Assembly: GCF_058153355.1 (NCBI RefSeq) | Contig: NZ_CM177019.1 | Length of the DNA stretch: 64,000 bases | Strand: one strand, 5' to 3' | Shown here: positions 4,046 through 22,639 of the stretch, one piece after another | How positions within the stretch are numbered: the stretch's first letter is position 1 | How the letters are laid out: the number at the start of each line of letters is the position of its first letter | Notes under the pieces: model-generated | What the model was told of the DNA's origin: nothing | Seen by the model: only the letters and a program-made list of their open reading frames with translations | Database searches by the model: none | Translations under genes and position numbers: made by a program

Positions 4046-4046
4046 C

Positions 4047-5743: not shown

Positions 5744-6393
5744 GCCGCCATCTCCCTGACCAGTTTTTCCGCCTGCTGGCGAACCTGCGCCAGAAAGGCC
5801 TCACCACATGCCTCAAGTTCATCGCGCCCGATGTAGCTGATTGCCGGTCCCTTCCAGGTCTTGTCGAAAACAACAATAGCACCAGCGAAGAAAGCGCCTG
5901 TCGGCACCTGCTTCTCGTCCTTCGGTATAAACCAGGCAGGCAGTTCAAAACCAATACGCCCGCGAATAAAAGCAATATGATCTGCATCTTCCGGCCACCA
6001 CACTTCGCTGGTGGCAGCTTTGATCAGGAAAACATAGCGCCCGCCTTTATCACGCATGGCACTGGCATGTTTCATGATGTAACGCATGCCGGTGATGTAT
6101 TGCCCCTCATGCTGACTGGCGCGGCTGTATGGGGGATTACCAAAGGCAGCACCTTTAAGCTCCGCAAGACGTTCTGACCAGTCATGCGCCAGCGCGTTGT
6201 CTTCCGCCGTGTAATACGCGGCACATTTGGCGTTATCACCGTCAGTGAACAGATCCAGAACAAACGGACCAAACAAGGTGTTAATTCCCCAGAAAATGTT
6301 GTCCGGCGTGCGCCACTGATCGCCCACTTCCTTCAGTTCATGGGCTGGTTTGTTCCGCAGTTCTACCAGCGCCTGGCAATATTTATTACTCAT
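5740..6393 (-). CDS. Phage N6-adenine DNA methyltransferase (Dam-like, NPPY motif)
   Basis: 217-aa ORF with FGNPPYSRA motif. Confidence 0.7.
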   Translation of the reverse strand: MSNKYCQALVELRNKPAHELKEVGDQWRTPDNIFWGINTLFGPFVLDLFTDGDNAKCAAYYTAEDNALAHDWSERLAELKGAAFGNPPYSRASQHEGQYITGMRYIMKHASAMRDKGGRYVFLIKAATSEVWWPEDADHIAFIRGRIGFELPAWFIPKDEKQVPTGAFFAGAIVVFDKTWKGPAISYIGRDELEACGEAFLAQVRQQAEKLVREMAA

Positions 6394-6485
6394 TAAGCCC
6401 CCACGTAAAAAGCATCCGCAATGTCTCCGGAAGTACAGCCCGGATGGGCTTCAATGAATTTCTGAACGTCATTTAACAGACTCAT
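6393..6485 (-). CDS. Small ORF (30 aa) between replication gene and Dam gene
   Basis: Manual translation MSLLNDVQKFIEAHPGCTSGDIADAFYVGA; its stop overlaps the Dam ATG (TAATG) and its ATG lies 2 nt after the upstream stop; not in ORF track because short. Confidence 0.25.
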   Translation of the reverse strand: MSLLNDVQKFIEAHPGCTSGDIADAFYVGA

Positions 6486-6487
6486 GA

Positions 6488-7480
6488 TCACCCCCTGAAT
6501 CCTGCCGGGATCTGGCTGTAGTCCACGTTGTCGTAACTGGCTTTGAAGTACGGGTCTTCACGTTTTTCTGTGTGCGTGCTGACGGACGGCGATAAGCGCA
6601 GGGAAAGCTCATCCCATTTTTCCCGCAACTTCGACGGGCTGAGCACGTTACGGCACCAGAACGGATCGCGGCTGACGCGGCTGTACATCTCGCAGATTTG
6701 TTTGTGAGTACGACCATCCTGCACACACATCAGGCGAATTTCGTTTGCCCATGCTGTCCAGTTCGGTTCTTTGGGACGAACCACCTCGCCGTCACATTCG
6801 GCGGCCTGCTCGTACAGGGCGATGATTTTTTTCCAGAGCCACTGTGCGCAGGTCAAATCATCCTGCGTTCCCCACTGGCGCTTTTTAGGGCTGAATACAA
6901 CCGCATCAGGATGGCGAGTTAAAAACTCCTGTTCAGCCGTTTGCGTGTCCGGTTGCGAAGCGTCCGGACGAGAAGAGGTTTTATTCTCTGTAGTAATCTC
7001 TGTTGTATTCTCTGTAAGATCATTGGGCCATTTTGACCCGATGACAGCGTGTCGTTTTGAACCAATGGATCGTGTCATTTTGCGCCCATCCATCAGGTCA
7101 CTTTGACCCGATGGAGAAGTGCATTTTGACCTGATGGATTCGTTCACTTTGACCTCTTCTAAAAGCTCACTTTCATAGTTGATCGTGTAGAAGTTGGTCA
7201 TGTCACGCTTCGATTTATTGAGTTGCTCGCGACGCAAAACCCCAAGTGATTTCAAGCTTGCAAATGTGCGTTTCAGAGTGGACTCTGACCAGAACGGAAA
7301 CTGCTCCAGCCACTGTTCTGTCGTGTTATAAACCCAGCGAATTCCGCCATGCTCTGTGCCTGAATTCGTTTCATTCAGCCAGTAATGAAGCTGCTGCAAC
7401 ACAATTGCCTCATTCAGACCAATACGGCATGCAAGATCACGATTTATCACAATGGGCTGGGATGTCATTAACAGGCTCAT
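6488..7480 (-). CDS. Phage replication initiation protein (O-like, iteron-containing) with DnaT-like C-terminal tail
   Basis: 330-aa ORF; C-terminus DYSQIPAGFRG resembles the C-terminus of host DnaT in this same window ([13 protein letters not shown]); internal iterons. Confidence 0.6.
   Translation of the reverse strand: MSLLMTSQPIVINRDLACRIGLNEAIVLQQLHYWLNETNSGTEHGGIRWVYNTTEQWLEQFPFWSESTLKRTFASLKSLGVLRREQLNKSKRDMTNFYTINYESELLEEVKVNESIRSKCTSPSGQSDLMDGRKMTRSIGSKRHAVIGSKWPNDLTENTTEITTENKTSSRPDASQPDTQTAEQEFLTRHPDAVVFSPKKRQWGTQDDLTCAQWLWKKIIALYEQAAECDGEVVRPKEPNWTAWANEIRLMCVQDGRTHKQICEMYSRVSRDPFWCRNVLSPSKLREKWDELSLRLSPSVSTHTEKREDPYFKASYDNVDYSQIPAGFRG
7028..7156. repeat. Iteron array (5-6 direct repeats of ~CAYTTTGACCYGATGG), candidate prophage replication origin
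   Basis: Direct repeats visible at ~7028, 7052, 7098, 7120, 7144 inside the replication gene, as for lambda ori inside O. Confidence 0.6.
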
Positions 7481-7489
7481 GACCGACCT

Positions 7490-7828
7490 CTATTTCCCTG
7501 AATTTACGACGAAACTGTTCGAGCGGACTGAAGCATTCATGTTCATAGCCTTCACGGAGGTAGATAACCCGTTGTGTTTCCGGCTCCCAACGAATGACTC
7601 TGACGGGCACTCCGTAGTGATCTTTGAACCAGCGGTTAACTTGTCGCAAAGGACTGTCTCCTTCTGCCGGTTGAAATCACCCACAGCCCACTCTGCAAAG
7701 CTGTGGGTTACAATTTCCCTGTCACCTGGTACATTCACTGCATAGCAATACTCCACCTTCGCTTTTCCACCCGGTACAGGAAGCGCAATCAGTTGCGAGC
7801 GACGGTAGTGTGTTGTTAAACTGTTCAT
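7490..7828 (-). CDS. Hypothetical phage protein (112 aa), coupled between the YdaT-like gene and the replication gene
   Basis: Start overlaps upstream stop (ATGA); its stop TAG is followed by AGGTCGGTC then the downstream ATG; an alternative overlapping frame (7437..7649) also looks protein-like. Confidence 0.35.
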
Positions 7829-8409
7829 GCGTTAGTTTCTCCACAGACACAAAACGCCACGACGCCCGGAGCTGCACACTCGCGGGCGTCACTCTTTTCT
7901 GGAGCGCAAAAGATTTTGTAGACCAGTGCTGCATGCTCCTGGAGCTTCGAAATTGACAGATACAACTCATCATTAATTACTGTCTGCTCGTGTGGCTCCA
8001 CTACCCCATCTTCGATTGCCGAACGAATCTGCTTTGAGTAACTCCCGATCTGTTCGATGACTTCCAGCAGACGCTGGTTTATATCGGCGTTCTCTACTTC
8101 CTCAATTTCAGGAAGCGATACAAACACCCCACCAGCAGACTGTGCGACAGCATCCGCAATGTAGTGAGTGCCAGCCGCGCGCTGTAAAATCATTGCCCAT
8201 CCCAGCGGGAAAATCTGATCGCCATCTGCACGAAGGCGGTTGAATAAAGCGTTCTCTGTTACATCCAGCCACTCAGCAGCTTCAGCGTAACCTCCCGGCA
8301 ACGCCGCGATAGTTTTTCTGACAGCTTTCACGTACCACTCAGGCTGTTTTTCTACTTTCCAGTGATGCTTACCCACGGCTATCTCCTTAAAACTGTGGTT
8401 ACTTTCCAT
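7825..8409 (-). CDS. Phage regulatory protein, YdaT/CII-like (194 aa)
   Basis: Position immediately downstream of the cro-like gene, as ydaS-ydaT in Rac; family from recollection. Confidence 0.4.
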
Positions 8410-8647
8410 CAGATAAGTCTTTAATCTTTTGAAAAATATCTGGACGTAATTTTTCTTTTGATACGCCAGTGGTCATTTCAATGAATATCGAGAGCTTTGC
8501 AGGGGGACGCTTTTCTCTGTTCAACCAGTTCCAGACATGTTGTTGCTTTACTAAACGACCACTGCTGGCTGTGAGCTTCCGAGCCAATTCTGATTGACCA
8601 CCAGCCAGAGCGATTGCCTCTGATAAGGCTAATTGCTCAGGTGTCAT
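8399..8647 (-). CDS. Cro-like HTH regulator (YdaS-like, 82 aa)
   Basis: Small ORF divergent from the cI-like repressor; AGGAGA RBS upstream. Confidence 0.55.
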   Translation of the reverse strand: MTPEQLALSEAIALAGGQSELARKLTASSGRLVKQQHVWNWLNREKRPPAKLSIFIEMTTGVSKEKLRPDIFQKIKDLSDGK

Positions 8648-8784
8648 AGCTTTCTCCTATCTGTAAGTAGTAAAGTTGTTGATAACTTCGATTATACAAC
8701 TACAACAACTTTTATTACAACTTTTAGATGTTGGAAAGCTAAAACATAAAGTTGTAACCTCAATAAAAACGAGGGGGATATGTT
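8648..8784. promoter_or_regulatory. Immunity-region divergent promoter/operator (OR-like)
   Basis: Repeated AAGTTGT / ACAACTT half-sites; minus-strand TTGTAA-18 nt-TATAAT promoter reading into the cro-like gene. Confidence 0.5.
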
Positions 8785-9471
8785 GTGAAAACATTGGCAG
8801 AAAGACTAAAAAGCGAAAGAGAAAAAGCAGGAATGAGTCAGGCGCAACTAGCTGAAAAAATTGGACTTTCACAACAATCCGTAGCGAAAATCGAGAATGG
8901 AGAAACTCAACAGCCTCGGAAAATTAAAGAGATTGCTAAAGTGTTAGGGGTTTCTCAAAAGTGGTTGCAATTGGGCATTGAGGATAACGCGTCTTTCCCA
9001 AACCTTGTTGTAAAGGAGGCTGAAAGTACAACATTAGATCCTGACATTTTTGCAAACATTCCTGTCCTAGATGTCGAATTATCAGCGGGTAATGGATGTT
9101 TGGCTGAAATAGTTGAATCAACTGTAGACTGGTTCCCGCTAAGAAGGATTGATTTAAGGAAAGCTGGTGTATGTGTCTCCAATGCAAAGATCGTAAAAAT
9201 TTGGGGTAATAGTTTACTACCTGTACTTAACAATGGAGATTTTGTTGCTGTTGATGTTTCCCAAACAGTTCCTATTCGTGATGGGGATCTTTATGCTATA
9301 CGTGATGGCGTATTACTTAGAGTTAAAATATTGATCAATTTACCTGACGGTGGTCTGATTCTAAGAAGTTTCAATAAAGATGAGTATCCAGATGAAATAC
9401 TCACCTTCGAAGATAGGCGTTCCAGAATTCACGTTATAGGTAGAGTATTCTGGTCATCGCGCACTTGGTAA
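8785..9471 (+). CDS. CI-like phage repressor (HTH-XRE plus S24 LexA-like peptidase domain), GTG start
   Basis: 228-aa ORF; N-terminal HTH (QAQLAEKIGLSQQSVAKIENG) and C-terminal domain of the size expected for an S24 peptidase. Confidence 0.75.
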   Translation: MKTLAERLKSEREKAGMSQAQLAEKIGLSQQSVAKIENGETQQPRKIKEIAKVLGVSQKWLQLGIEDNASFPNLVVKEAESTTLDPDIFANIPVLDVELSAGNGCLAEIVESTVDWFPLRRIDLRKAGVCVSNAKIVKIWGNSLLPVLNNGDFVAVDVSQTVPIRDGDLYAIRDGVLLRVKILINLPDGGLILRSFNKDEYPDEILTFEDRRSRIHVIGRVFWSSRTW

Positions 9472-9654
9472 TGCATCAAAAACATTCCTTCAGAAATTTA
9501 GTTACCATTATTACCCGCCTTTTCAATCTTCCTCCCGTGATTTGAGAGTTTCCAATCACGGAAGGAAAGTGTCCATTGTGTAATTAAAAGCGCATCGTCC
9601 ATACAACCTCCTTTTTTGATAACCCTAGCCCCCATTTAACATCCGTCAAAACCA

Positions 9655-9700
9655 CATAAAGTTGTTGACAACAACCAAAACAACAACTAGATTACAACTT
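9655..9700 (+). promoter_or_regulatory. PL-like promoter with overlapping operator palindrome
   Basis: 17-bp palindrome GTTGTTGACAACAAC containing TTGACA, 17 nt spacer, TAGATT; same half-site motif as in the OR-like region. Confidence 0.5.
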
Positions 9701-9803
9701 AAAGATGTTGCAGTAACGAACAGGCAGGACGCCCACGAAGTAGCCGCCGGTGGCGTATGAATGACCGGATGATTCGTTAAATACTATGTGTAAGAGAGCG
9801 CAA

Positions 9804-10006
9804 ATGAACCGTTATTTCACATGCTCGTTTTGTGGCGCAAACGAGCTGCAGGCAAAAAAATCATCGCCAAAGGCGGAAAAGATGAAGTTGCTATCTGCTC
9901 TGAGTGCGTAGTCTTGTGTGTTGGGGCATTAATCAATATCAGCACAACTATTCAGTTCACACCAAATGAGAATGCGCCTTTAGATGCGCGGAAATCTGGA
10001 GGTTAA
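9804..10006 (+). CDS. Small ClpX zinc-binding-domain-like protein; full product needs a -1 shift at the A7 tract 9854-9860 (zero frame stops after 35 codons)
   Basis: Frame 0 gives MNRYFTCSFCGANELQAKK..., the -1 frame continues IIAKGGKDEVAICSECVVLC...; joined product resembles the ClpX N-terminal CSFCGK...YICDECVDLC motif. Confidence 0.4.
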
Positions 10007-10094
10007 AGAACAAAATGAAAGTCCAGATTTTAAACAATAACTGTGAAGTCGTTTGGGCGTAAAACATGACCGCGCGTAGACCAAGGGAGGAAAA

Positions 10095-10272
10095 AGTGGG
10101 AATAGTTAGAAATCAAGCAGATATATTGAAAATCAGCTCTGAATTGCTTGGAGTTTTGAAAAGTGAGCTCACCGCACATGGCATCGAGCCCACTGACGAA
10201 AATTTAAGTTGGGTTTTGTCGATTATTCAACAATCACTCAAGCCCAGCCTCAGCAAACTTTTTATCGAGTAG
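10095..10272 (+). CDS. Hypothetical small protein (58 aa from GTG with GGGAGG RBS; ORF track lists it from an ATG at 10066)
   Basis: ORF only; convergent with and overlapping a minus-strand small ORF. Confidence 0.2.
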
Positions 10273-10425
10273 TGCTTCGAACTTATCGTAAAGCTTGCTT
10301 ATGTCGTCTATCGGGTTTTCTGACGTACTGTAATTTTTATCTGATGTCATGGCAGCAGTCTGATATGCAGTGTGAGTCTTAACCGATAGTTGGAATAAAT
10401 AAAGAATTTTTTCTTCTTTGGTCAT
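10234..10425 (-). CDS. Hypothetical small protein (63 aa from internal ATG with AAGGA RBS)
   Basis: ORF with a good RBS (AAGAAGGAAATAGTT-ATG); no motif recognised. Confidence 0.25.
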   Translation of the reverse strand: MTKEEKILYLFQLSVKTHTAYQTAAMTSDKNYSTSENPIDDISKLYDKFEALLDKKFAEAGLE

Positions 10426-10863
10426 AACTATTTCCTTCTTGGCTATATGAAAACACCAAGATACCACCGAGCCTGAAGTGGTGAAAAGACAGGCACATAA
10501 CAGCTAAGTATTTTCAACCAGAGAGAATCCTTAGCGTTGTGGTGAATGCGGCTCAGCGCACGCGGGTTAAGGTTGAGGTTGACAGTCGACCTTCTGTGGA
10601 TACCCACCCGCCTGGTGTGCAACCTTCGCCAGGCACCGGGAGGCACCCGGCACCACAACTTTATGCTGTGTGTAGTCCTCGCGGTACCAGTTTGTACACT
10701 TGCTTCCGGCTGGTACCGCTCTTTTTACAAAACAGAGAAGGGCATCACCGGACGACGGGCTCATAACCCAATCCATCCGGGCGGCTGCCACCGCAGGTGT
10801 TCTTCTCTGTTTTGTGGAGAAACCAACCGACCTTGCAGGGTCGATATGATGAGGAGCAGCAAA

Positions 10864-11226
10864 ATGGCTAGCGAACGCAGTACTGATGTGCAGGCATTTA
10901 TCGGGGAGCTGGACGGCGGCGTATTTGAAACCAAAATCGGCGCAGTTCTCAGTGAAGTCGCTTCCGGTGTGATGAACACGAAAACCAAAGGTAAGGTCTC
11001 GCTCAACCTGGAAATCGAACCATTTGATGAGAACCGTGTGAAAATCAAACACAAACTCTCATATGTTCGCCCGACTAACCGCGGGAAAATTTCCGAAGAA
11101 GACACCACCGAAACACCGATGTATGTCAATCGCGGTGGTCGCCTGACTATTCTGCAGGAAGACCAGGGACAATTACTGACTCTTGCCGGTGAACCTGACG
11201 GAAAACTACGCGCAGCAGGTCATTAA
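10864..11226 (+). CDS. YfdP-like prophage protein (120 aa)
   Basis: GAGGAG RBS 7 nt upstream of the ATG; synteny with the following yfdQ/yfdR/yfdS-like genes as in K-12 CPS-53. Confidence 0.45.
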   Translation: MASERSTDVQAFIGELDGGVFETKIGAVLSEVASGVMNTKTKGKVSLNLEIEPFDENRVKIKHKLSYVRPTNRGKISEEDTTETPMYVNRGGRLTILQEDQGQLLTLAGEPDGKLRAAGH

Positions 11227-11291
11227 TATCGTTCTTAATTAACTGATTATTTATCTCATCACTGAATATCTTTATATAGTGAGGACTTATT

Positions 11292-12116
11292 ATGTCTCAG
11301 AACTTAGACGCAACCGCAATTAATCAAATCCATGCCCTTATTTCTGCTCAGGGTGTTAATGAAATTATTAGTAAGATTGGTGCCGATGCTGTGGCATTGC
11401 CTGAGAATTTCCGCATTCATGATCTGGAAAAATTTAATTTAAATCGCTTCCGTTTCCGTGGTGCGCTTTCCACTGCCAGCATCGATGACTTTACCCGTTA
11501 TTCTAAAGATCTTGCAGATGAAGGCACCCGCTGCTTTATCGATGCCGATAATATGCGTGCCGTCAGTGTGCTTAACCTGGGTACTATTGATGAACCAGGT
11601 CACGCAGATAACACCGCCACTCTCAAACTGAAAAAGACAGCACCGTTCTCTGCTCTGTTGTCTGTTAATGGCGAGCGTAACTCCCAAAAGTCACTGGCAG
11701 AATGGATTGAAGACTGGGCCGACTACCTTGTGGGCTTTGATGCTAATGGTGACGCCATTCAGGCAACCAAAGCGGCTGCGGCGATCCGTAAAATCACAAT
11801 TGAAGCGAACCAGACCGCTGATTTTGAAGACAATGACTTCAGCGGCAAACGCTCCCTGATGGAGTCTGTCGAAGCGAAGACCAAAGACATTATGCCAGTG
11901 GCATTTGAATTTAAATGCGTTCCGTTTGAAGGCCTGAAAGAACGTCCGTTTAAATTACGCCTCAGCATTATCACTGGCGATCGTCCTGTACTGGTTCTGC
12001 GCATTATTCAGCTGGAAGCGGTGCAGGAAGAAATGGCTAACGAATTTCGTGATCTGCTTGTTGAGAAATTTAAAGACAGCAAAGTAGAAACCTTTATTGG
12101 TACTTTCACCGCCTGA
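11292..12116 (+). CDS. YfdQ-like prophage protein (DUF2303-type, 274 aa)
   Basis: Length and position match remembered CPS-53 yfdQ. Confidence 0.5.
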
Positions 12117-12243
12117 TTTCATTACTGCAAATGCCCCTGCGGGGGCATTTATGGAAACATAATTTACTCAATAATCGCCGGATGGTGAGGGCTTCCTTTT
12201 ACCAGAATTCAGCGCGGTGCAGCGCATATACGTGGAGAACAAA

Positions 12244-12780
12244 ATGTCATTTATTAAAACTTTTTCCGGGAAGCATTTTTATTATGACAAGATAAATAAA
12301 GACGACATCGTTATTAACGATATCGCGGTTTCCCTTTCAAATATCTGTCGCTTTGCAGGGCATCTTTCACACTTCTACAGCGTCGCCCAACATGCGGTGC
12401 TTTGCAGCCAGCTGGTACCGCAGGAATTTGCTTTTGAAGCGTTAATGCATGATGCAACAGAAGCATATTGCCAGGACATCCCCGCACCACTGAAACGACT
12501 TCTTCCTGACTATAAACGGATGGAAGAAAAAATAGACGCCGCAATCCGTGAGAAATACGGGTTACCCCCAGTTGTGAGTACGCCCGTGAAATATGCCGAT
12601 CTCATCATGCTGGCAACCGAACGCCGCGATCTCGGGCTTGATGATGGCTCTTTCTGGCCTGTACTGGAAGGCATCCCGGCAACAGAGATGTTCAACGTGA
12701 TTCCACTGGCACCGGGTCATGCCTACGGGATGTTTATGGAACGTTTTAACGATTTATCGGAGTTACGCAAATGCGCATGA
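12244..12780 (+). CDS. HD-domain phosphohydrolase (YfdR-like 5'-deoxynucleotidase)
   Basis: LMHDATEAY HD motif; 178 aa from the MSFIKTF start. Confidence 0.65.
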   Translation: MSFIKTFSGKHFYYDKINKDDIVINDIAVSLSNICRFAGHLSHFYSVAQHAVLCSQLVPQEFAFEALMHDATEAYCQDIPAPLKRLLPDYKRMEEKIDAAIREKYGLPPVVSTPVKYADLIMLATERRDLGLDDGSFWPVLEGIPATEMFNVIPLAPGHAYGMFMERFNDLSELRKCA

Positions 12781-13133
12781 ATGTTTTCGAAATGGAAGGG
12801 TTTCTTCGCGGGAAATGTGTACCGCGAGATCTGAAAGTGAACGAAACAAATGCTGAGTACCTGGTACGTAAATTCGACGCGCTTGAAGCTAAATGTGCGG
12901 CACTGGAAAACAAAATAATACCAGTGTCAGCTGAACTGCCACCAGCAAATGAAAGTGTTCTGTTATTTGATGCTAATGGAGAAGGCTGGCTGATTGGCTG
13001 GCGTTCTCTCTGGTACACCTGGGGACAAAAAGAAACCGGAGAATGGCAGTGGACATTTCAGGTCGGGGACCTTGAAAACGTCAATATCACTCACTGGGCA
13101 GTAATGCCAAAAGCACCGGAGGCTGGAGCATAA
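12771..13133 (+). CDS. YfdS-like prophage protein (DUF551-type)
   Basis: 120-aa ORF overlapping the upstream gene end; Trp-rich C-terminus. Confidence 0.4.
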   Translation: MRMNVFEMEGFLRGKCVPRDLKVNETNAEYLVRKFDALEAKCAALENKIIPVSAELPPANESVLLFDANGEGWLIGWRSLWYTWGQKETGEWQWTFQVGDLENVNITHWAVMPKAPEAGA

Positions 13134-13912
13134 TGACCACATTTACCAATAAAGAACTGATTAAAGAAATCAAAGAACGAATCAGCAGCCTAGAGGTTCG
13201 AGACGATATTGAGCGCCGTGCTTATGAAATTGCTCTGGCATCGCTAGAAGAGGAGCCGGTGGCATGGCTGCATTCAGAAAATGGCTTAGGTATTCCGGCA
13301 ATAACGAGGTGTAAAAACATTGCTGACAGTTGGTTATCAAAGGGCTGGTATGTTCAGCCGCTATATATAGCCAAGCCAGTGCCGGTAGTGCCAGATGCTC
13401 GTCCGTCTTTAAATAATGGCATAGTCGGTTTTGATGAAGGCTGGAACGCCTGCCGCGCCGCCATGCTTCATGGTGCCGAACCTGTAAACCAAACTTACAA
13501 GTCACCACACACGCAGTTTGAACAAGTTGCTGACCTCTACGAAATGCAATTTGATGACGGTCGCACTTGTGCCTTTCACACTGATGCGCAAAAGGCTGCG
13601 CAATGGCTTCAGGTGTGCGACGGAAACAGGGTTCAGGAATACGTTAAGCTGGAACGGCTGCAGAACGCGCTGTCTGGCAACTCTCCGGTAAGTCCGGGTG
13701 GTTGGATAAGCTGTAGTGAGCGAATGCCGAATGATAAACAGTATGTTTGGTGTTGGGGGAAGTCTTACGGCTGGACTGAGTGCGATACCTTCGAAGGGTA
13801 TTATGATTGGTCGAGAAACAAATGGTGGGCAGTTACTGACAATGAGGAAGAACAGGCATCGAAAGTAACCCACTGGATGCCACTACCGGAGCCGCCGCAG
13901 GAGGTGAAGTAA
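13133..13912 (+). CDS. Hypothetical prophage protein (259 aa, DUF551-like C-terminal region)
   Basis: Coupled ORF (start overlaps upstream stop). Confidence 0.35.
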   Translation: MTTFTNKELIKEIKERISSLEVRDDIERRAYEIALASLEEEPVAWLHSENGLGIPAITRCKNIADSWLSKGWYVQPLYIAKPVPVVPDARPSLNNGIVGFDEGWNACRAAMLHGAEPVNQTYKSPHTQFEQVADLYEMQFDDGRTCAFHTDAQKAAQWLQVCDGNRVQEYVKLERLQNALSGNSPVSPGGWISCSERMPNDKQYVWCWGKSYGWTECDTFEGYYDWSRNKWWAVTDNEEEQASKVTHWMPLPEPPQEVK

Positions 13913-14106
13913 TGAACAACTTAATGACAACTAAACAAGTCGCCGATTTCTGTGGTGTTTCAGTATCGACAGTTCTTCGCTGGAACAGCGTAAACAGGAG
14001 AACTGGTCAGAAATATAGGCCTGACTTTCCAGATCCTGATATTAAATCCTGCCCAAATAAATGGGCATCACACAAGATTTACAGATTTGCGGGAGTGATT
14101 GAGTAA
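13912..14106 (+). CDS. Excisionase / AlpA-family HTH protein
   Basis: 64-aa ORF with KQVADFCGVSVSTVLRW HTH; position next to integrase. Confidence 0.5.
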   Translation: MNNLMTTKQVADFCGVSVSTVLRWNSVNRRTGQKYRPDFPDPDIKSCPNKWASHKIYRFAGVIE

Positions 14107-14388
14107 TATGTATTAGCTTAGATGTGAGCTGACACATCTATGCTTAGATGCCAAACCTAATCTGAGCGTCCACTCTTTACCAAGAGCGGACGTTACCAAT
14201 GACCATATGACATGAATCGATAAGATCAAAACATTATCACCAAGAAATGTCATACCATTGATACAAATAAAATTGATTACCCCCTTACTCTTGTTGAAAA
14301 GTTAGTCGTAGAGTACCTATCGCAATGTAATCAGCTTTAATCATCTTAAAATTACTCCTTAAAAATTAGCTTTTATATACTGAACAAA

Positions 14389-15108
14389 TTAAATCTCTGT
14401 TTCTTTTCCTGCTCGGCTCAACCAATACTCCATTGTTTGAGTATGAATCTTTTCAGCGTATATTTTATCAATTAATTTATCTTGTTTTTCTTTAATGACT
14501 TCACGCAGTGAATCATATAACATAAAAAAACGTTCATCATCTTCCTCATTATTACCGTAATTTATTTGATTGAGCTCTGAAAAAATATGATAGTACCTTT
14601 TCTTCTTGGTCCCCGGCAATATTAAAACCAAGCCACATTGATCATATTCGAATTCACCTTTATGGGCAGCAAAGTTATGTCTAACATTCATAATAGAATC
14701 ATGTAAATCTCTGTATTTTTCTGGCACATGCTTTCTCTGCAATGTGAATCGACGCCCTTTCGCCTCTGTAAAACACTTACCGTAAGTAACAACTTTTGAT
14801 ATAAATAAAGACTTTAATATTAGATTCTTTTCTAAATCCGGATAAATAAAGTGTTGTTCTTTATTAATGTTATTACAAATGTTTTTTATTATATTCTCCC
14901 AACCAATAACATTCCGAAGATCTTTATCAAGCAACTGTAAGGCCACATATTGTTCTACAAAGCGGCCTTTTAAAGGTATTCGTGGTAATATTACACCTTT
15001 CTGCTTATAAATTCTTTCTATCGTATTATCTGGATATTGGATCTTCCTTATTTCTATTCCGTCTTCTTCTGATACCCTTACTAATGGTTCATTTTTTAAC
15101 TTTGACAT
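14389..15108 (-). CDS. AT-rich orphan gene between xis and int (239 aa, no recognisable domain)
   Basis: Clean ORF in a low-GC segment flanked by AT-rich non-coding DNA. Confidence 0.5.
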   Translation of the reverse strand: MSKLKNEPLVRVSEEDGIEIRKIQYPDNTIERIYKQKGVILPRIPLKGRFVEQYVALQLLDKDLRNVIGWENIIKNICNNINKEQHFIYPDLEKNLILKSLFISKVVTYGKCFTEAKGRRFTLQRKHVPEKYRDLHDSIMNVRHNFAAHKGEFEYDQCGLVLILPGTKKKRYYHIFSELNQINYGNNEEDDERFFMLYDSLREVIKEKQDKLIDKIYAEKIHTQTMEYWLSRAGKETEI

Positions 15109-15394
15109 GTTAACCCTCTTAAATAAAAAACTAACTTTATCCAGATAGTGTCCGTTAAGAAGTTTTCGTTACAACTAAGTTTCTAGGTAAATCATGAATC
15201 GACCTATAGTATCAAAAACATTTGGTGGTAAACATCTGCATTTATCAAATGGCAGGAGCGATTTAGGGGCATAGGGATAGTGATGATATCGATACTCGCC
15301 CCCCTCTTATGTCAACACAATGGCGTAAACTTAACGCTCACATCTCGCTCAAAGTGTGCTAGGAGATTTGGTTATGTTCAGGTGATACAAACCG

Positions 15395-16618
15395 TCAGTT
15401 TGAATCAGAGATAGTACAATTAACAATCGATTCAACCCTCTTCCACCATGCCAGGTAAGCTTTACGCTGTTCTTCTAGATAATCGCTCTTATCATAAACT
15501 TGCCATACCCCTGGCAGCTTATGACCAAGCATAATTTCTGCGATATGAGGCGCAGTAAGATCAGAAAAATTTGTTCGAGCTGTACGTCTCAAGTCATGAA
15601 GAGACCAATGAGGGAATTGATATCCTAAACACCGCCATGCGTACTGCATTAAATTGTAAGGCAGCGACTGCAATGATGTCCGACCAACGGGTTCCCTGCT
15701 TCCTTCCTTAGTAAAAAGCATATCGGAACCATTGTTCATAGAGATAGCGTACTTTATAAGCTCTTCAACCGGTTCAATAATGGGCCGCTTTAGCGGTTCG
15801 CCTGTTATCTCCCCTGTCTTATGTCGTTCTGGTGGTACAGTCCATACTTTATTAATGAAATCAAAATCGTCCACCCGGGCGGTAATTAGCTCTGAACTAC
15901 GGCAACCAAAATGCAGCAATAGTTTAATGAAGGCCCGGTATTTAGGAACCATTCGAGAACCATCGATCGCAGCATAAAGGATTTTAATTTCATCATGTGT
16001 CAGAAACCGTTTCTTCTGACCTTTACGGATATCCATATCTTTACCCGTGATATCCGACAGCGGGCGAGTTTCAATGAGCTTTCTCTTATACGCCCAGACA
16101 TGGGCCTGCTTTGCGTTAATTAGCAATCGGTCTGCTATTGCTGGAGTCTTAGTGCTAAGAGGCTCCAGGACTTCTAACCAATCATGCAATGTAGCTGCAT
16201 CGTGAGGGATATTCCCGATTTTAGAGAACAGGTGCAGCTCAAACGAGCGAAGTATCTGTTCAGAACCTTTTTTATTTTTTACACAATATGCTTCATACCA
16301 AGCACGGATCACAGACTCTACCGTCATGGCTTCAGTAGCTTTTCGTTTTTCAGCCTGCTTGACCAATCGTGGATTACGGTTTGACTCGAGTTCACCACGA
16401 AGACGGATAACTTCTTCTCTGGCCTCTTTTAATCCAGTTGCCGGGTAAGTTCCGATATCAAGACGCTCACCTTTCCCTGCCCATTGATAACGATATTGGA
16501 ACACTACGCGACCTTTCGGTGATACTCTGACAGACAGACCATCACGATCGGATTTAACCAAAACCTTATCACGTTCCTTTCCAACGACTGAACGCAACCA
16601 CGCATCAGACAGCGCCAT
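15395..16618 (-). CDS. Tyrosine-type site-specific integrase (P4-like family)
   Basis: 407-aa ORF with HDLRRTARTN and LGH...Y catalytic-region motifs and an arm-binding-type N-terminus. Confidence 0.85.
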   Translation of the reverse strand: MALSDAWLRSVVGKERDKVLVKSDRDGLSVRVSPKGRVVFQYRYQWAGKGERLDIGTYPATGLKEAREEVIRLRGELESNRNPRLVKQAEKRKATEAMTVESVIRAWYEAYCVKNKKGSEQILRSFELHLFSKIGNIPHDAATLHDWLEVLEPLSTKTPAIADRLLINAKQAHVWAYKRKLIETRPLSDITGKDMDIRKGQKKRFLTHDEIKILYAAIDGSRMVPKYRAFIKLLLHFGCRSSELITARVDDFDFINKVWTVPPERHKTGEITGEPLKRPIIEPVEELIKYAISMNNGSDMLFTKEGSREPVGRTSLQSLPYNLMQYAWRCLGYQFPHWSLHDLRRTARTNFSDLTAPHIAEIMLGHKLPGVWQVYDKSDYLEEQRKAYLAWWKRVESIVNCTISDSN

Positions 16619-17003
16619 TACTCACCTTGTACAAATCGCAAAACACCTCTGCTGTTTTGTACATTATGTACAAGCATATGTACAGATTTTTGATGAAAGC
16701 AAGCTGATCGATTTAAAGTTACATGAAAGAGTTTTCAATTAAAGAAGCTACATAAGCAAATGTATTTAAATGAGTTATATAGCTCAACTTCAATTAACTG
16801 AAAGGATTTTGAAAGAGTAAAAGAGCTTTAATTTGGACTTAATTATTGGGGTGAGAAATAATGGCAAAAGTGCGGCGCTTCGCCACCTCTTGCAAATAAG
16901 GAGACAACGTCATAATTCTTTCTTCTTGAGTAAGCGGCATCGCGCCGCGCTTGTTGAAAACGAAAAATTGCGGCTATTTTACCCATCAACGGGGGGGAGG
17001 CAA

Positions 17004-17681
17004 TCAGTGTTTACACAGGAGCTGCTCCAGTTCGTGCAACGAAGAAACGGTCCAGGTAGGCGCGATGCCTTCTGGTTGCTCGCGATTGTGCGCATTCAGC
17101 CAGCAGGTCGCAAGCCCGGCGTTGATGCCACCGAGAATATCGGACTCGGCAGTGTCGCCAACCATCAGCACGCGTGAACGGTCAGGATTGCCCGCCTGTT
17201 CCAGCGCATAATCGAAAATTTTCTTATTCGGTTTGGCTACGCCAACTTCTTCGGAAATCACCAACAAATCGAAATAATCACGCAGGCCCGTGCGTTCCAG
17301 ACGCACTTGCTGCAAGGCGCTAAAGCCGTTGGTGATGATGCCGATTTTGGCGTTGCCGCGAATGGCATTAAGCAGGGAAACCGCGCCCGGCAGCGGTGTG
17401 CAAATTTCCGCCATCGCATTAATGAAGGCCTCGTTGAGTTTACCTGGCTCGACGTTCAGCCGTTCGGCCCAGCTCTCAAAACGCCCGTGCTGAAGCTGTA
17501 ATGAAGTGATCGCACCGTTTTGATAATCTACCCACAGGGGCTTGTTAACGGCCTGATAGTCCTGAAAATCTTCAGCGGTAAAAGTGACGCTGTAATCAAG
17601 AAACATCCGCTGCAGGCCGGTGAATGAGTCAAAGGTAAACAGCGTTTCATCGGCATCAAAGAAAATCCAGTCCCACTTCAT
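17004..17681 (-). CDS. yjjG: Pyrimidine 5'-nucleotidase YjjG (HAD family)
   Basis: 225-aa [21 protein letters not shown] motif; synteny with rimI-holD-rsmC. Confidence 0.85.
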
Positions 17682-17695
17682 TATTCCACCTTGTC

Positions 17696-18142
17696 TTACA
17701 TACTGATTGGCAACGCCATGATGATGGCGTCTTCGCGACCGTCCTTGGTGGGGTAGTAATTGCGGCGAATCGTCGCCTCGTTAAAGCCTAAACTTTCGTA
17801 CAGGGCAATGGCGGCAGCGTTTGAGGCACGGACTTCCAGCCATAGCGTCGCCACGCCGCGTTTTTCCAGTTCGTCGATCAGATGTTCCAGCAGCGCCCTT
17901 CCCAGTCCCTGACGCTGATAGTCAGGATCGACCGCAATATTGAACAATGTAGCTTCATCCAGCACCACTTGCGTAATCGCAAACGCCGCCATTTTGCCGT
18001 TTTGCGTTAACTGAAAGTTGAGATAACGCTCGCCCTGATTACTGGCAAAGGTTTTTTCACTCCACGGAAAGGCGTGGGCGCGTTGTTCAATGTGGAAAGC
18101 CGTTGGTAAATCAGTCGTTTCGAGGGAAGAAATCGTGTTCAT
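17696..18142 (-). CDS. rimI: Ribosomal protein S18 alanine N-acetyltransferase
   Basis: 148-aa GNAT ORF; synteny. Confidence 0.85.
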
Positions 18143-18524
18143 ATGTGCAAATTTGTTGCCATAACGCGGCGCGTGCCGTTGGGTTTGCCCGTAATTCGGT
18201 GAGCGCCGGTGATGCCACCTGAGCGCCTTCCAGTGATAGCGGTTCGTCAGTACCCAACCGCCAGCTGTTGCAGCGACTGCCTTGCGGCAGCATCGCGATT
18301 TTTTCTGGCGTCAGTTGCAGCACTTGATCGGGGCTGACGGTTAATGCACGCAGAACATCGCTCACCAGAGGATCGGTCAGGGCGGGAAGATCGTTTGCCA
18401 CCATCACCAGACGGACGTGTGCCGGGATCGCAATGGCAATCTCCCCCTGCAACGCGCCAGGGCGACGCAGCGACCACTGGGTAATGCCCAGTTGCTGTAA
18501 CTGCCAGTCTCGTCGGGATGTCAT
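18111..18524 (-). CDS. holD: DNA polymerase III psi subunit
   Basis: 137-aa ORF overlapping the rimI start; synteny. Confidence 0.8.
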   Translation of the reverse strand: MTSRRDWQLQQLGITQWSLRRPGALQGEIAIAIPAHVRLVMVANDLPALTDPLVSDVLRALTVSPDQVLQLTPEKIAMLPQGSRCNSWRLGTDEPLSLEGAQVASPALTELRANPTARAALWQQICTYEHDFFPRND

Positions 18525-18626
18525 AGCGAATCGCTCCTGTTGTCAGGGGCGCAAATATAGCAAATTCGTCGATACCGCGCCAACATATGGCTATAATCGC
18601 CGCCAGTATCAATTGAGGAGCATTCC

Positions 18627-19658
18627 ATGTCTGCATTTACCCCGGCAAGTGAAGTCTTGCTGCGTCACAGTGATGATTTCGAACAAAGCCGTATTCTTTT
18701 TGCCGGAGACTTACAGGATGACCTGCCCGCGCGTTTAGATACCGCGGCCAGCCGTGCTCATACCCAGCAGTTCCACCACTGGCAGGTATTAAGCCGCCAA
18801 ATGGGTGATAACGCCCGTTTTAGTCTGGTCGCCACGGCGGATGACGTCGCAGATTGCGATACGCTGATTTACTACTGGCCGAAGAACAAACCGGAAGCCC
18901 AGTTTCAGTTGATGAATTTACTTTCTCTGCTGCCGGTGGGAACGGATATTTTTGTCGTTGGCGAGAACCGAAGCGGCGTGCGCAGCGCCGAGCAGATGCT
19001 GGCAGATTATGCACCGTTGAATAAGGTGGACAGCGCCCGTCGCTGTGGCCTCTATTTTGGTCGTCTGGAAAAACAGCCGGTATTTGATGCCGATAAATTC
19101 TGGGGCGAATACAGCGTCGATGGCCTGACGGTCAAAACGTTGCCGGGCGTGTTTAGCCGCGACGGTCTGGATGTCGGTAGCCAGTTGCTGCTTTCGACGT
19201 TAACCCCGCACACGAAAGGTAAAGTGCTGGATGTCGGCTGCGGTGCAGGCGTTCTTTCAGTTGCCTTTGCACGCCACTCACCGAAGATTCGTCTCACGTT
19301 GTGCGATGTTTCTGCGCCAGCAGTTGAAGCCAGCCGTGCAACACTTGCGGCCAACGGTATTGAAGGTGAAGTCTTTGCCAGCAACGTCTTTTCTGAGGTG
19401 AAAGGTCGTTTTGATATGATCATCTCCAATCCGCCGTTCCACGATGGGATGCAAACCAGTCTGGATGCAGCACAAACGCTGATTCGCGGCGCGGTGCGTC
19501 ATCTTAACAGCGGCGGCGAGCTGCGAATTGTAGCGAACGCCTTCCTGCCTTACCCGGACGTGCTGGATGAGACATTTGGCTTCCACGAAGTGATCGCGCA
19601 AACCGGGCGCTTCAAGGTGTATCGCGCCATTATGACCCGCCAGGCGAAGAAAGGTTAA
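18627..19658 (+). CDS. rsmC: 16S rRNA m2G1207 methyltransferase
   Basis: 343-aa ORF with SAM-binding [11 protein letters not shown] and NPPFH motifs. Confidence 0.85.
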
Positions 19659-19674
19659 GTATCCCGCCGCAAGC

Positions 19675-19725
19675 CTTGCCGGATGCGGCGTGCTTGCCTT
19701 ATACAACCTACAAAACCTGCAAGTT
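19675..19725. repeat. REP-like palindromic unit (3' flank of intron)
   Basis: gccggatgcggcgtg...ccttata, resembling the E. coli REP consensus. Confidence 0.4.
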
Positions 19726-19773
19726 AGCCCTGTCGGGTAGCAGCGATTCATTACTGTCTCGCCGCCCCCTAAG

Positions 19774-19807
19774 AACGGTACGTGCGAGTTTCCCCGCATA
19801 CCGCTCA
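19774..19807 (-). other. Group II intron domain V (catalytic hairpin)
   Basis: Minus-strand GAGCGGTATGCGGGGAAACTCGCACGTACCGTTC matches the domain V consensus including the AGC triad and GAAA loop. Confidence 0.7.
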
Positions 19808-19812
19808 AGCCT

Positions 19813-21492
19813 TTATAAGCCTCCACCTTGTGGGAGACCAGCGTCATTACTATGTAGTTGTCGATGGCAGTTGGGATGGAGTAGGACTAAATTGCTCACA
19901 TCATCGCTACCGCCAAGAGATTTCTTGAGCAAATGATGAACATTCCATCCTGTATCGCGATTAATCGGTTGCTCACATAAAGGGCAGCGCGATCCTTGCC
20001 TTTTCCATATAGCGAGAATCCTTTTCTGCCCCTGTTGGGATTTCTTCCATGAGTAGTCCAGCCTTCTTTCGAAGTATGTTTCCCACTCGGGATCATATGG
20101 ATTTGCCGTTCCCTTTATTTTTATATAGCGATTAATATGGATGTCGCTGGCCCGGGACAGAACATATTTCCTACCCTCCGGATCGACTCCATAAAATCGA
20201 CCATGACACATTTTTATTGTCGTGTGGTACTTTCGGAAGATCCATCTCCGGCCTTTGCCGGGATGTCTCCTTCTGCACCACTGCCAGATTTTGCGCCAGA
20301 TTTGGTTGTCGACATAGTTAAATGTCTCTGCCGATGCTACATGTTGGTGATAGTTTGCCCACCCGGTGATGATTGGATTAAGCAGATTTATTAGCACCCA
20401 TGCAGGAACCGTTCGGTTACCTTCAATAGTCTCTCTGATCTTGCTAAGAAATTGTTTAACGTTTTTCTTGGCTGGTCTGATTATGAGTTTTCTACCGAAG
20501 CGTCGGACGTGCTGCCCAAGGAAATCAAATCCGTCAGTAATGTGAGTGATGACCGTTTTCTCTTCGGATAACGTCAGCCCTCTTTCTGCAAGAAATGATT
20601 TCACCAACGGAAGAACATTCTCCTCCAGAAGTTCTTTCGACTTTCCGGAAATGATGAAATCATCAGCATACCGGACGAAGTGAACCTGATGTTTCCTGAA
20701 TGTTTTTGAGCGTTTCGGACCAAAGCGATTTTGCAGCAGTCTTTCCAGTCCATCCAGGGCCATGTTTGCCAGAACTGGAGATATGATTCCTCCCTGGGGT
20801 GTACCCGAGAGAGTTTTGCTGAATATGCTTTTTTCGATGATCCCGGCTTTCAACCAATTACGGAGTATTTGCTTGTCCATAGGAATATTTTCAAGCAGCC
20901 ACTCGTGGCTAATGTGTTCAAAGCATCCTTTAATATCGCCTTCCAGAACCCATTTCGAGGCGTTCCGGGAACTATACATATTACATACCTGTTGAATGGC
21001 GTCAGCCGTACATCGCGCTGGTCTGAAACCATAACTGTTGTGATCTGCATTAGTTTCCGATACAGGCTCCAATCCCAGCAGATGCAGGGCCTGCATTGCC
21101 CTGTCAAGCATGACGGGGATTCCTAATGGTCTTTTCTTGCCATTAGATTTGGGTATAAAAACTCTTTTTAGCGGTAGGGGCTTGTACCCTTTTCGCCTGA
21201 GTTTGAATATCGCTTCCCATTTTGATTCTGGAGTACTCCAGATTTGACCATCAACTCCGGGGGTTTTACGCCCGCTATTTTCCGTAACTCGTTTCACCGC
21301 CAGTGCTCTGGCGCTGAATGAGCGAACCAGCAATCGTTGCAATCTACCGACTGTACGCCATTGCTGGTTACATGCCGCCTTTGCGATTCTTGTCTGTATG
21401 GTTTTAACGTGTTGATGGCATTTCTTCCAGTTAATGGAATGCCAACCTTTTCCGTTGATGACCGCAGTTACATTGTTAGATGTAATTTTCAT
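19813..21492 (-). CDS. Group II intron-encoded reverse transcriptase/maturase with C-terminal HNH endonuclease
   Basis: YADD motif (RYADDFIISG), RT motifs, HNH (HHLLKKSLGGSDDVSNLVLLHPNCHRQLH); likely start at MKITSNN (ORF track starts 21 codons upstream at 21555). Confidence 0.85.
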   Translation of the reverse strand: MKITSNNVTAVINGKGWHSINWKKCHQHVKTIQTRIAKAACNQQWRTVGRLQRLLVRSFSARALAVKRVTENSGRKTPGVDGQIWSTPESKWEAIFKLRRKGYKPLPLKRVFIPKSNGKKRPLGIPVMLDRAMQALHLLGLEPVSETNADHNSYGFRPARCTADAIQQVCNMYSSRNASKWVLEGDIKGCFEHISHEWLLENIPMDKQILRNWLKAGIIEKSIFSKTLSGTPQGGIISPVLANMALDGLERLLQNRFGPKRSKTFRKHQVHFVRYADDFIISGKSKELLEENVLPLVKSFLAERGLTLSEEKTVITHITDGFDFLGQHVRRFGRKLIIRPAKKNVKQFLSKIRETIEGNRTVPAWVLINLLNPIITGWANYHQHVASAETFNYVDNQIWRKIWQWCRRRHPGKGRRWIFRKYHTTIKMCHGRFYGVDPEGRKYVLSRASDIHINRYIKIKGTANPYDPEWETYFERRLDYSWKKSQQGQKRILAIWKRQGSRCPLCEQPINRDTGWNVHHLLKKSLGGSDDVSNLVLLHPNCHRQLHSNDAGLPQGGGL

Positions 21493-22094
21493 ACATGTCA
21501 TCCAAAGAAACCTTCGCAGATGTTTCGCAATTAAAGACCAGATGGAAGTCAGCACGGTTTCCCGTTAAGGCAAATATTGAACCTCTATCCGCACGATTAC
21601 AGTCCGGCTTTCGCTTTTTCCATCCTCCTTTACCCGCATTCTCATCAGTTTGCCTTACGGTGCCCCTGCCACTAGGGCGAGAATTCGGGCTTACCAAGTT
21701 CCGACCAACATACAAAGAACGGGTTAGGTTCTGTCTATCCGCCGGGGGAGTTATTGTCCATGTATTCCCACTACGAACAGGAATAGCCTTACCCCTTACC
21801 TTTTGGTGCAAGCCTATCAGCATCTTTGGCTCGTTCTCTGTTACGACGTTTAACGACAGTTCACTATGTTAACCATACCGCCCAGCCTAGCGCTCTCGCC
21901 GCATGATGCTTGTAGCGATCAGGTTTTCTCACGATTAACTGAAGCAATATTTGCTAAGCTACATTGTCCCAAGGGCTTCAGACAGAGCCGTTACCAGCTT
22001 TGCCTGCCTCAGTAGGCTACAACTAATGGAATAGTTGGTTTTATATAAATAATTTATCAAAACAATATGTTGGACGACTTCTTGTCGCACTCGT

Positions 22095-22200
22095 AGGCCA
22101 GATAAGACGCGCCCGCGTCGCATCTGGCATCTGCACCCAAATACCGTGTCGGATGCGGCATGAACGCCTTATCCGACCTATAAAACCTGCACGTTAGTTT
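22095..22200. repeat. REP/BIME cluster (5' flank of intron): two REP-like units
   Basis: gccagataagacgcgcccgcgtcgcatctggc and gtcggatgcggcatgaacgccttatccgacctat. Confidence 0.45.
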
Positions 22201-22248
22201 CCTGATGGACATTTTTCCAGCAATTACACCTCCGTCGATAATTAACTA

Positions 22249-22276
22249 TTGACGAAAAGCTGAAAACCACTAGAAT
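22249..22276 (+). promoter_or_regulatory. leuQPV promoter (sigma-70; GC-rich discriminator)
   Basis: TTGACG, 16 nt spacer, TAGAAT, then gcgcctcc upstream of the first tRNA. Confidence 0.55.
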
Positions 22277-22317
22277 GCGCCTCCGTGGTAGCAATTCTTT
22301 TTAAGAATTGATGGTAT

Positions 22318-22404
22318 GCGAAGGTGGCGGAATTGGTAGACGCGCTAGCTTCAGGTGTTAGTGTCCTTACGGACGTGGGGGTTCAAGTCCCCCCCCTCGC
22401 ACCA
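22318..22404 (+). tRNA. leuQ: tRNA-Leu (anticodon CAG), copy 1
   Basis: 87-nt sequence gcgaaggtggcggaattggtagacgcg...cttCAGgtg...ggttcaagtccccccctcgcacca with encoded CCA. Confidence 0.9.
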
Positions 22405-22432
22405 AAAACCACGTTGATATTGCTCGCACTGG

Positions 22433-22519
22433 GCGAAGGTGGCGGAATTGGTAGACGCGCTAGCTTCAGGTGTTAGTGTTCTTACGGACGTGGGGGTTCA
22501 AGTCCCCCCCCTCGCACCA
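22433..22519 (+). tRNA. leuP: tRNA-Leu (anticodon CAG), copy 2; one substitution in the variable arm relative to copies 1 and 3
   Basis: Same sequence except gtgttcttacgg instead of gtgtccttacgg. Confidence 0.9.
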
Positions 22520-22552
22520 AACGAGGCGATATCAAAAAAGTAAGATGACTGT

Positions 22553-22639
22553 GCGAAGGTGGCGGAATTGGTAGACGCGCTAGCTTCAGGTGTTAGTGTC
22601 CTTACGGACGTGGGGGTTCAAGTCCCCCCCCTCGCACCA
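22553..22639 (+). tRNA. leuV: tRNA-Leu (anticodon CAG), copy 3
   Basis: Identical to copy 1. Confidence 0.9.

Follow-up and report, generated by a model that had tools for sequence, protein, structure and literature searches.

The window analyzed here was a 64,000-nucleotide stretch of DNA, which carried part of a lambdoid prophage on its left side and a host flank that included yjjG to the right of the prophage. The features at and around the junction between the two are listed below in window coordinates, together with the strand where one applies and the basis for each assignment.

1 to 16848: prophage DNA, the half of a lambdoid prophage that carries its early and regulatory genes; the prophage continues upstream of the window (PHROGs matches; absent from unoccupied sites).
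13912 to 14106, plus strand: candidate excisionase (Xis), 64 amino acids (full-length match to phrog_1553, "excisionase," E = 4e-36).
15395 to 16618, minus strand: tyrosine integrase of the DUF4102 (Arm-DNA-bind_3) type, 407 amino acids (Pfam PF13356, PF22022, and PF00589).
16619 to 16848: attachment-site arm on the integrase side, consisting of phage DNA (aligns with the 2H10 and Ayreon attP sites with scattered substitutions only; no counterpart in K-12).
16627 to 16684: four TGTACA motifs (16628 to 16633, 16658 to 16663, 16667 to 16672, and 16679 to 16684), candidate arm-type integrase sites (motif clustering).
16839 to 16913, minus strand: truncated 5' remnant of prfC, consisting of 22 native codons followed by two asparagine codons (N N) and a stop out of phage DNA (window translation compared with K-12 prfC).
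16849 to 16862: att core GGGTGAGAAATAAT, 14 bp (the only block common to the window junction, the K-12 attB site, the 2H10 and Ayreon attP sites, and the far junction of E. coli 2013C-4282).
16914 to 17003, minus strand: native spacer between yjjG and prfC, including the prfC leader and a promoter-like site at 17003 to 16976 (matches K-12).
17004 to 17681, minus strand: yjjG (pyrimidine 5'-nucleotidase), host flank (open reading frame; yjjG annotation in all matching E. coli genomes listed).

Beyond yjjG, the open reading frame listing continued with rimI, holD, and rsmC. The integrase gene (int) was located less than 400 bp from the yjjG stop codon, and its product carried three Pfam domains, which bore out an earlier reading of the sequence alone that a prophage was integrated here with its integrase end adjoining yjjG. 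The same sequence-only reading had named prfC as the neighbor of yjjG in K-12, and this was confirmed.

To the left of yjjG, the host DNA comprised the prfC promoter region plus codons 1 to 22 of that gene, and the last host base was 16849. This boundary was derived from a megablast comparison of window positions 16400 to 17300 with 5,426 complete E. coli genomes. The whole stretch was present in 699 of the genomes, with integrase and yjjG annotated. In the remaining genomes among the matches listed, K-12 included, the match started at query position 450, which corresponded to window base 16849, and the matched part was annotated as yjjG and prfC. Because every unoccupied-site genome among the matches listed started at the same base, the break point was not a chance effect. 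Prophage-free E. coli genomes were contiguous with the window from yjjG to 16849, and positions 16849 to 17003 were therefore host DNA. This 155-bp host stretch was made up of the yjjG-prfC spacer and prfC codons 1 to 22. The segment from 15395 to 16848 was absent from unoccupied sites. The sequence-only reading had given the whole interval from 15395 to 17004 to the prophage and had named contiguity with yjjG in prophage-free genomes, without any repeat, as the observation that would speak against it. Such contiguity was found for 16849 to 17003 only, so that this part of the interval was reassigned to the host with the 5' end of prfC, and the part from 15395 to 16848 stood as phage DNA.

The prfC start codon was located at 16913 on the minus strand (ATG ACG TTG ...), and the translation from this codon matched the first 22 residues of release factor 3 (RF3). 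Thus, 65 nt of prfC were retained beyond the spacer before the phage DNA began, and the remnant open reading frame was 24 codons long. In E. coli 2013C-4282, the equivalent 69 nt was annotated as a pseudogene fragment by PGAP. The insertion site was within the prfC coding sequence, at codons 18 to 22, and was not intergenic. An integrase that targets a tRNA gene in the manner of P4-like integrases was considered and rejected, since the att core was not in a tRNA or tmRNA gene and ARAGORN and Rfam searches found neither type of gene within 5 kb of the junction. The only tRNA genes that ARAGORN identified were three tRNA-Leu genes at 22318 to 22639, in agreement with the earlier remark that no tRNA was present at the junction.

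To define the att core, five sequences were aligned: the window junction, the K-12 attB site, attP from each of two free phages (2H10 and Ayreon), and the far prophage junction in the lysogen 2013C-4282. To the left of GGGTGAGAAATAAT, the window followed attP; to the right, it followed attB. The far junction of 2013C-4282 showed the reciprocal pattern. On the prfC strand, the core read ATT ATT TCT CAC CC, which corresponded to prfC codons 18 to 22 (I I S H P), just ahead of the GTPase P-loop. It had been claimed from the sequence alone that the core could not be defined without the other prophage end; attB, attP, and the opposite prophage junction in a related lysogen were sufficient to place it at 16849 to 16862. 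The alignment showed the pattern of Campbell-type integration: attP and attB shared a short, identical core, and the junctions were reciprocal hybrids of the two, with the attR sequence taken from a related lysogen rather than from the window strain. The same 14 bp were annotated as a "duplication due to insertion" in the Stx2c phage record LC727876, and the duplication is already marked in public records of Stx1a/Stx2c phages. In the case of Ayreon, attP was identical to attB over 20 bp rather than 14 bp, owing to one synonymous base difference, so that the length of attP-attB identity varies between phages.

The core occurred once in the 64-kb window, compared to 0.01 matches expected by chance, and the second copy therefore lies outside the window, as the sequence-only reading had anticipated. 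Our picture of the far end comes from related lysogens and free phages. The junction in 2013C-4282 was 99.6% identical to that in the window, and about 48.6 kb from it, the 2013C-4282 prophage ended at a prfC gene that was annotated as intact (528 amino acids). Phages 2H10 and Ayreon, which are free, propagated phages, carried the same int (97% nucleotide identity) beside an intact and uninterrupted attP. The far junction was present in 699 genomes, which equaled the count for the integrase junction, and it was located under features annotated as prfC. These 699 of 5,426 genomes amounted to an occupancy of about 13% among complete E. coli genomes. For window positions 13000 to 22300, coverage did not exceed 75% in any of the complete genomes, partly due to a group II intron found only in the window. 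For the window prophage, the second core copy and the hybrid prfC are extrapolated from these related lysogens, in which the prophages have a mosaic relationship to that of the window; the predicted arrangement at the outside end is ...ATGACAAGCCTTTTGGCCGCAGAGGTAGCGAAAAGAAGAACCTTTGC(A/C), then GGGTGAGAAATAAT, then prfC from codon 23 onwards. Taken together, the data make it very likely that window positions 15395 to 17003 are the integrase-side junction (attL in the lambda nomenclature) of a lambdoid prophage that entered the 5' coding region of prfC via Campbell-type integration.

The integrase matched PF13356 (Arm-DNA-bind_3; E = 2e-16), PF22022 (Phage_int_M), and PF00589 (Phage_integrase; E = 3e-17). 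Residues R240, K267, H341, R344, H366, and Y375 were invariant in an alignment of 16 integrase sequences, and they are the presumed catalytic residues. The protein was 99% identical to the integrase of the free phage 2H10. No NCBIfam model was specific for it, as all of the hits were far under the cut-offs. When IMG/VR viral contigs were scanned with the integrase alignment, all that was recovered were E. coli prophage fragments that were nearly identical (97 to 100% identity) and truncated at int, which added no diversity. The Xis candidate also showed weak matches to HTH_17, Gifsy-1 Xis, and the TIGR01764 excisionase model. For a low-GC open reading frame between xis and int, searches with PADLOC and Pfam returned no match.

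The arm between int and the core was AT-rich (about 35% GC). A 22-nt unit, ATTATGTACAAGCATATGTACA, was located at 16663 to 16684, inside the TGTACA cluster. The heptamer ATGTACA had eight matches in the 64-kb window, three of which were within 27 bp of one another in the integrase-side arm. In the 2H10 attP site, the unit ATTATGTACAAGCATATGTACA had a second copy (95% identity) 264 bp away, in the opposite arm, and further TGTACA copies were found. TGTACA-type pairs were also observed beside int in Shewanella, Moraxella, and L007 elements and in the attP site of R997, an SXT/R391-family element. Based on their placement in both attP arms, the TGTACA motifs are probably arm-type sites for the DUF4102 domain.

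The native spacer contained a sigma-70-like match, TTGCCT-16-TAAAAT, on the minus strand (the promoter-like site at 17003 to 16976). This prfC promoter-like site now pointed through the remnant and the arm at int, which was in the same orientation, and there was no terminator-like site in positions 16500 to 17100. Read-through from the captured prfC promoter into int is possible, judging from this arrangement.

The DNA to the left of the junction had the composition of a lambdoid prophage. PHROGs matches included a Q-like antiterminator (2284 to 3036), RusA, an O-like replication protein, a CII-like activator, a CI-like repressor (8785 to 9471), and DNA methyltransferases, and positions 1 to 16618 followed the lambdoid gene order, from the Q-like antiterminator through RusA and the O-like, CII-like, and CI-like proteins to Xis and Int. 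The int and xis open reading frames were full length, and none of the window's regulatory and replication genes was obviously truncated. Positions 10681 to 16848 were collinear with the prfC prophage of 2013C-4282 at 98.5% identity, and the immunity and replication regions of the two differed, a pattern that marks the window prophage as mosaic relative to that of 2013C-4282. Late genes were present in the 2013C-4282 prophage; in the window prophage, the late part lies beyond the window. No stx gene was found in the part of the prophage within the window.

The far arm of attP carried the material for a substitute prfC 5' end. In the 2H10 attP site, the Ayreon attP site, and the lysogen, this arm contained an ATG and 16 codons in frame with the core. 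Thus, the element supplied both a start codon and an in-frame N-terminal segment, which is what is expected of an element that restores a gene at its 5' end. The lysogen prfC gene was annotated as an intact, 528-amino-acid hybrid. The hybrid RF3 was one residue shorter than K-12 RF3 and, a single polymorphism at residue 288 aside, differed from it only at residues 2 to 8. Over codons 9 to 17 (EVAKRRTFA), the phage and host sequences had eight nucleotide differences in six codons, and all of the differences were synonymous. Divergence of this exclusively synonymous kind argues for a translated, selected sequence; it also restricts the identity with host DNA to the core. In addition, R997 independently kept the same 11-residue peptide in its own substitute 5' end. 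The conservation of the peptide in the phage and R997 5' ends, together with the synonymous changes, therefore argued for selection on the translated product. The phage-encoded peptide matched RF3 residues 8 to 22 in solved structures. On the prfC strand of the far arm, we found no convincing sigma-70 promoter, and the best consensus matches were 8 to 9 of 12 positions. Ogura et al. [quoted passage not shown] (2013) counted prfC among the genes disrupted by phages. We infer that the hybrid prfC would be transcribed from a phage-borne promoter and be functional.

Three other readings of the locus were weighed against the one presented here. The sequence-only reading favored a protein-gene-proximal or intergenic target, that is, an integrase that recognizes a site just downstream of yjjG and leaves prfC intact beyond the prophage. 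The short distance from int to yjjG and the absence of a tRNA gene suited this idea, but it was refuted by the alignment with unoccupied sites, in which the host sequence extended to prfC codon 22 and the core itself was coding, and we consider it hardly credible. A second alternative accepts the insertion in prfC and holds that integration inactivates the gene, in which case the phage ATG and 16 codons would be a historical leftover, the hybrid would be silent, and lysogens would be RF3 deficient. In this regard, prfC was reported to be absent from the list of E. coli essential genes (Ogura et al., 2007; PMC2323221). The lack of a strong predicted promoter in the far arm is in keeping with inactivation, as are the statement of Ogura et al. 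on the lost signals and the listing of prfC as disrupted by Bobay et al. However, the divergence in codons 9 to 17 was wholly synonymous, two unrelated element-borne 5' ends (those of the phage and R997) kept the same peptide in frame, the open reading frame was intact in the lysogen annotation, and the site was occupied in 13% of genomes. On balance, we view inactivation of prfC as unlikely and continue to prefer a restored, translated hybrid.

A third possibility is that the prophage has decayed to a remnant, or that the element is a non-phage island with a borrowed integrase, in which case the junction would be a fossil that no longer recombines. Only the early half of the prophage was visible in the window, related prfC prophages contained IS insertions and broken head and tail genes, and non-phage islands in Vibrio and Pseudomonas use integrases of this family as well. 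These points have to be set against the full-length int and xis open reading frames, the integrase-side arm that aligned with the 2H10 attP site with nothing more than scattered substitutions, and regulatory and replication genes that were typical of lambdoid phages. A fossil junction seems improbable in light of these features, and an integration module that can still recombine is the reading that we carry forward.

In the mechanism that we propose, the DUF4102-type integrase would recombine the 14-bp core that is identical in attP and attB, and the 64-amino-acid Xis would probably direct excision. Integration would part the native prfC promoter and codons 1 to 22 from the rest of the gene and leave them beside yjjG. 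At the other prophage end, outside the window, prfC would be rebuilt as a 528-amino-acid hybrid in which the phage ATG and 16 codons are fused to the core. We infer that this module is still active in the window strain.

For annotation, the junction is best described as an attL site inside prfC with a 14-bp core, a 24-codon remnant, and a predicted hybrid prfC at the far end; the labels "intergenic insertion" and "prfC disrupted" would both misdescribe it. With about 13% of complete E. coli genomes carrying an insertion here, and with Stx1a- and Stx2c-converting phages among the users of the site, correct boundaries should aid prophage typing in pathogenic E. coli. A phage and the SXT/R391 resistance elements compete for the same 14 to 17 bp of prfC via homologous integrases, and the shared target could affect which elements coexist in one strain. 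Nothing here is new in kind.

As a prfC prophage with a 14-bp duplication, the element is an ordinary member of an already known kind. The use of prfC as a Stx phage integration site has been published since 2007 (PMC2323221), and the site is also used by the Stx1a and Stx2c phages of clonal complex 119 (PMC10132054). The known prfC lambdoid phages include the Stx1 phage of O103 (Ogura et al., 2007), the Stx1a and Stx2c phages of clonal complex 119 (LC7278xx), 2H10, and Ayreon, and the cdt-I phage cited by Smyshlyaev et al. (2021) is also counted among them. These phages resembled the window prophage in that they had the same integrase (96 to 97% nucleotide identity and up to 99% protein identity), the same 14-bp core, the same arms, and the same change in the RF3 N terminus. 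They differed from it in cargo and in the immunity and replication modules, as is the case for mosaic prophages.

The SXT/R391 elements use the same target. The 17-bp attP consensus of this family, ATcATcTCtCACCCtGA (PMC9058013), fell on the same prfC codons as the phage core, and the 14-bp core was contained within the 17-bp site (ATcATcTCtCACCCtGA in SXT/R391 compared with ATTATTTCTCACCC in the window). The R997 and window integrases were 39% identical over 405 aligned residues, which covered the full length of the proteins (E = 4e-90), and the R997 attP site contained a substitute prfC 5' end and pairs of GTGTACAAA motifs in its arms. Thus, the SXT/R391 elements were like the window phage in having a DUF4102-type integrase, TGTACA-type pairs in both arms, and a substitute 5' end; they were unlike it in that the carrier is conjugative there and a phage here. 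The gene arrangement also differed. In the window phage, int came after the prfC remnant and was oriented like it, and xis was located 1.3 kb off on the opposite strand, whereas in R997, xis followed the core and int converged on xis. Membership in the SXT/R391 family requires that the integrase match IntSXT almost exactly (about 99%) and that the conjugative backbone be conserved. The possibility that the window element is an SXT/R391 integrative and conjugative element was rejected, since its integrase was only 39% identical and the part seen contained lambdoid genes rather than transfer genes.

Smyshlyaev et al. (2021) placed prfC-inserting phage integrases and SXT integrases in one "SXT cluster" of the IntSXT subgroup. 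The window integrase had a DUF4102 domain and a catalytic domain, was related to the R997 integrase, and was inserted at the prfC 5' end, and we assign it to this cluster based on domains, pairwise identity, and site rather than on placement in the published tree. Homologues with 51 to 52% identity were found in Vibrio, Pseudomonas, and Shewanella, where they were located 220 to 230 nt from a prfC remnant that ended in IISHP.

Integration that restores a gene at its 5' end, as proposed here, has been reported both for SXT and for elements with dusA-specific integrases. The latter, which are found in prophages and genomic islands, use a different target gene and were compared by description only. 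Phage 21 and e14 integrate in icd, where the 3' end of a protein gene is duplicated and the host promoter is kept. The window prophage was like phage 21 and e14 in that the insertion interrupted a coding sequence whose open reading frame is kept intact by a replacement segment from the phage. It was unlike them in that the 5' end is replaced, and the element must therefore also supply the start signals for transcription and translation.

The comparison could be extended to phages that integrate at the 5' end of lepA, which is listed as a Salmonella prophage hotspot (Bobay et al., 2013). The integrases of two such phages, Salmonella phage SPN3UB and Klebsiella phage 5 LV-2017, were 45 to 46% identical to the window integrase, a higher pairwise identity than that of IntSXT (38 to 39%). 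In the attP sites of SPN3UB and 5 LV-2017, the reading frame for MKNIRNFSIIAHID ran through the core and stopped 228 nt before int. The MKNIRNFSIIAHID peptide was identical to residues 1 to 14 of E. coli LepA (EF4), which places the lepA core at the equivalent position in a paralogous GTPase gene, on the homologous codons that immediately precede the P-loop. Thus, the lepA phages were like the window phage in that a GTPase 5' end ran through the core and was followed by about 228 nt to int (FSIIAHID in the lepA phages and FAIISHPD in the window phage). They were unlike it in that they target lepA and carry GTGTCCA-type arm repeats.

A neighbor-joining tree of ten integrases, in which the deep branches were weakly supported (11 to 39%), was only suggestive of a lepA group nested among the prfC group. 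The closest relative outside E. coli for which the context was available, L007, was 54% identical, and the 326 nt available upstream of it contained neither a prfC nor a lepA remnant, so that not every member of the clade could be assigned to a GTPase target. In the literature searched, we found no paper that links the lepA and prfC integrases. An idea that we rate as evenly balanced is that the window, SXT/R391, and lepA integrases form one clade, with cores at homologous pre-P-loop codons of paralogous GTPase genes (FAIISHPD in prfC and FSIIAHID in lepA), a shared attP layout (substitute 5' end, core, arm of about 225 nt, and int), and a target that was switched by small changes in the core. 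If this is true, the captured native prfC promoter would read into int in every lysogen.

In the attP of the free phage Ayreon (L003 2937-2956), the first base after the 14-bp core was G rather than T. Because of this replacement, its identity to the E. coli attB extended over 20 bp instead of 14. The change from T to G was synonymous (Ala17).

The phage DNA directly past the far arm of attP was examined in two records.

L004 3174-3484, free phage 2H10, region directly past the far attP arm
L002 15230-15533, E. coli lysogen 2013C-4282, region directly past the far attP arm

In both the phage and the lysogen, two CTGT-N8-ACAG palindromes were located immediately past the arm, and they looked like LexA boxes. 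Both palindromes overlapped a promoter-like site (TTGACA-18-AAAAAT), and a DinI-like gene, divergent from the rebuilt prfC, was found downstream of this site. This 220-bp region may be SOS regulated, and it would also hold any phage promoter for prfC.

Two additional features were identified inside the prophage.

14389-15108, minus strand, 239-aa ORF of low GC content (about 30%), between xis and int
10506-10728, plus strand, STnc100 sRNA family (Rfam, 49.8 bits versus a gathering score of 47)

The sole match of the 239-aa ORF was phrog_8440, a family of unknown function, and searches of Pfam and PADLOC returned nothing. The ORF was also found in phage 2H10, and it looks like a moron.

On the host side of the window, a group II intron was located.

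19736-22090, minus strand, group II intron (about 2.35 kb), inserted with rsmC on one side and the leuV-leuP-leuQ tRNA genes on the other
19813-21555, intron ORF with reverse transcriptase, maturase, and HNH domains
21891-22038, D1-D4 region of the intron (Rfam match)
19732-19808, Intron_gpII (Rfam match)

An Rfam match to naRNA4 (REP type) at 22096-22178 adjoined the intron. Strain 2013C-4282 lacked the intron at the rsmC/leuV-leuP-leuQ position, and no complete E. coli genome covered more than 75% of window positions 13000-22300.

The integrase relative on a metagenome contig (L007 1-330) was 413 aa in length and 54% identical to the window integrase. Paired TGTACAT motifs were present immediately upstream of its gene, and no prfC or lepA remnant was found in the available 326 nt upstream. 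The integrase gene faced the 5' end of a small gene whose product appears to be secreted, and the integrase may have a different target.

The R997 record (NZ_KY433363.1) was an SXT/R391-type element, even though it was deposited as a circular plasmid. At its closure point (the end of L098 and start of L097), the sequence ATCATC ATTATTTCCCACCCTGA gave four isoleucine codons, a reading that may be an artefact of the joining of attL and attR sequences.
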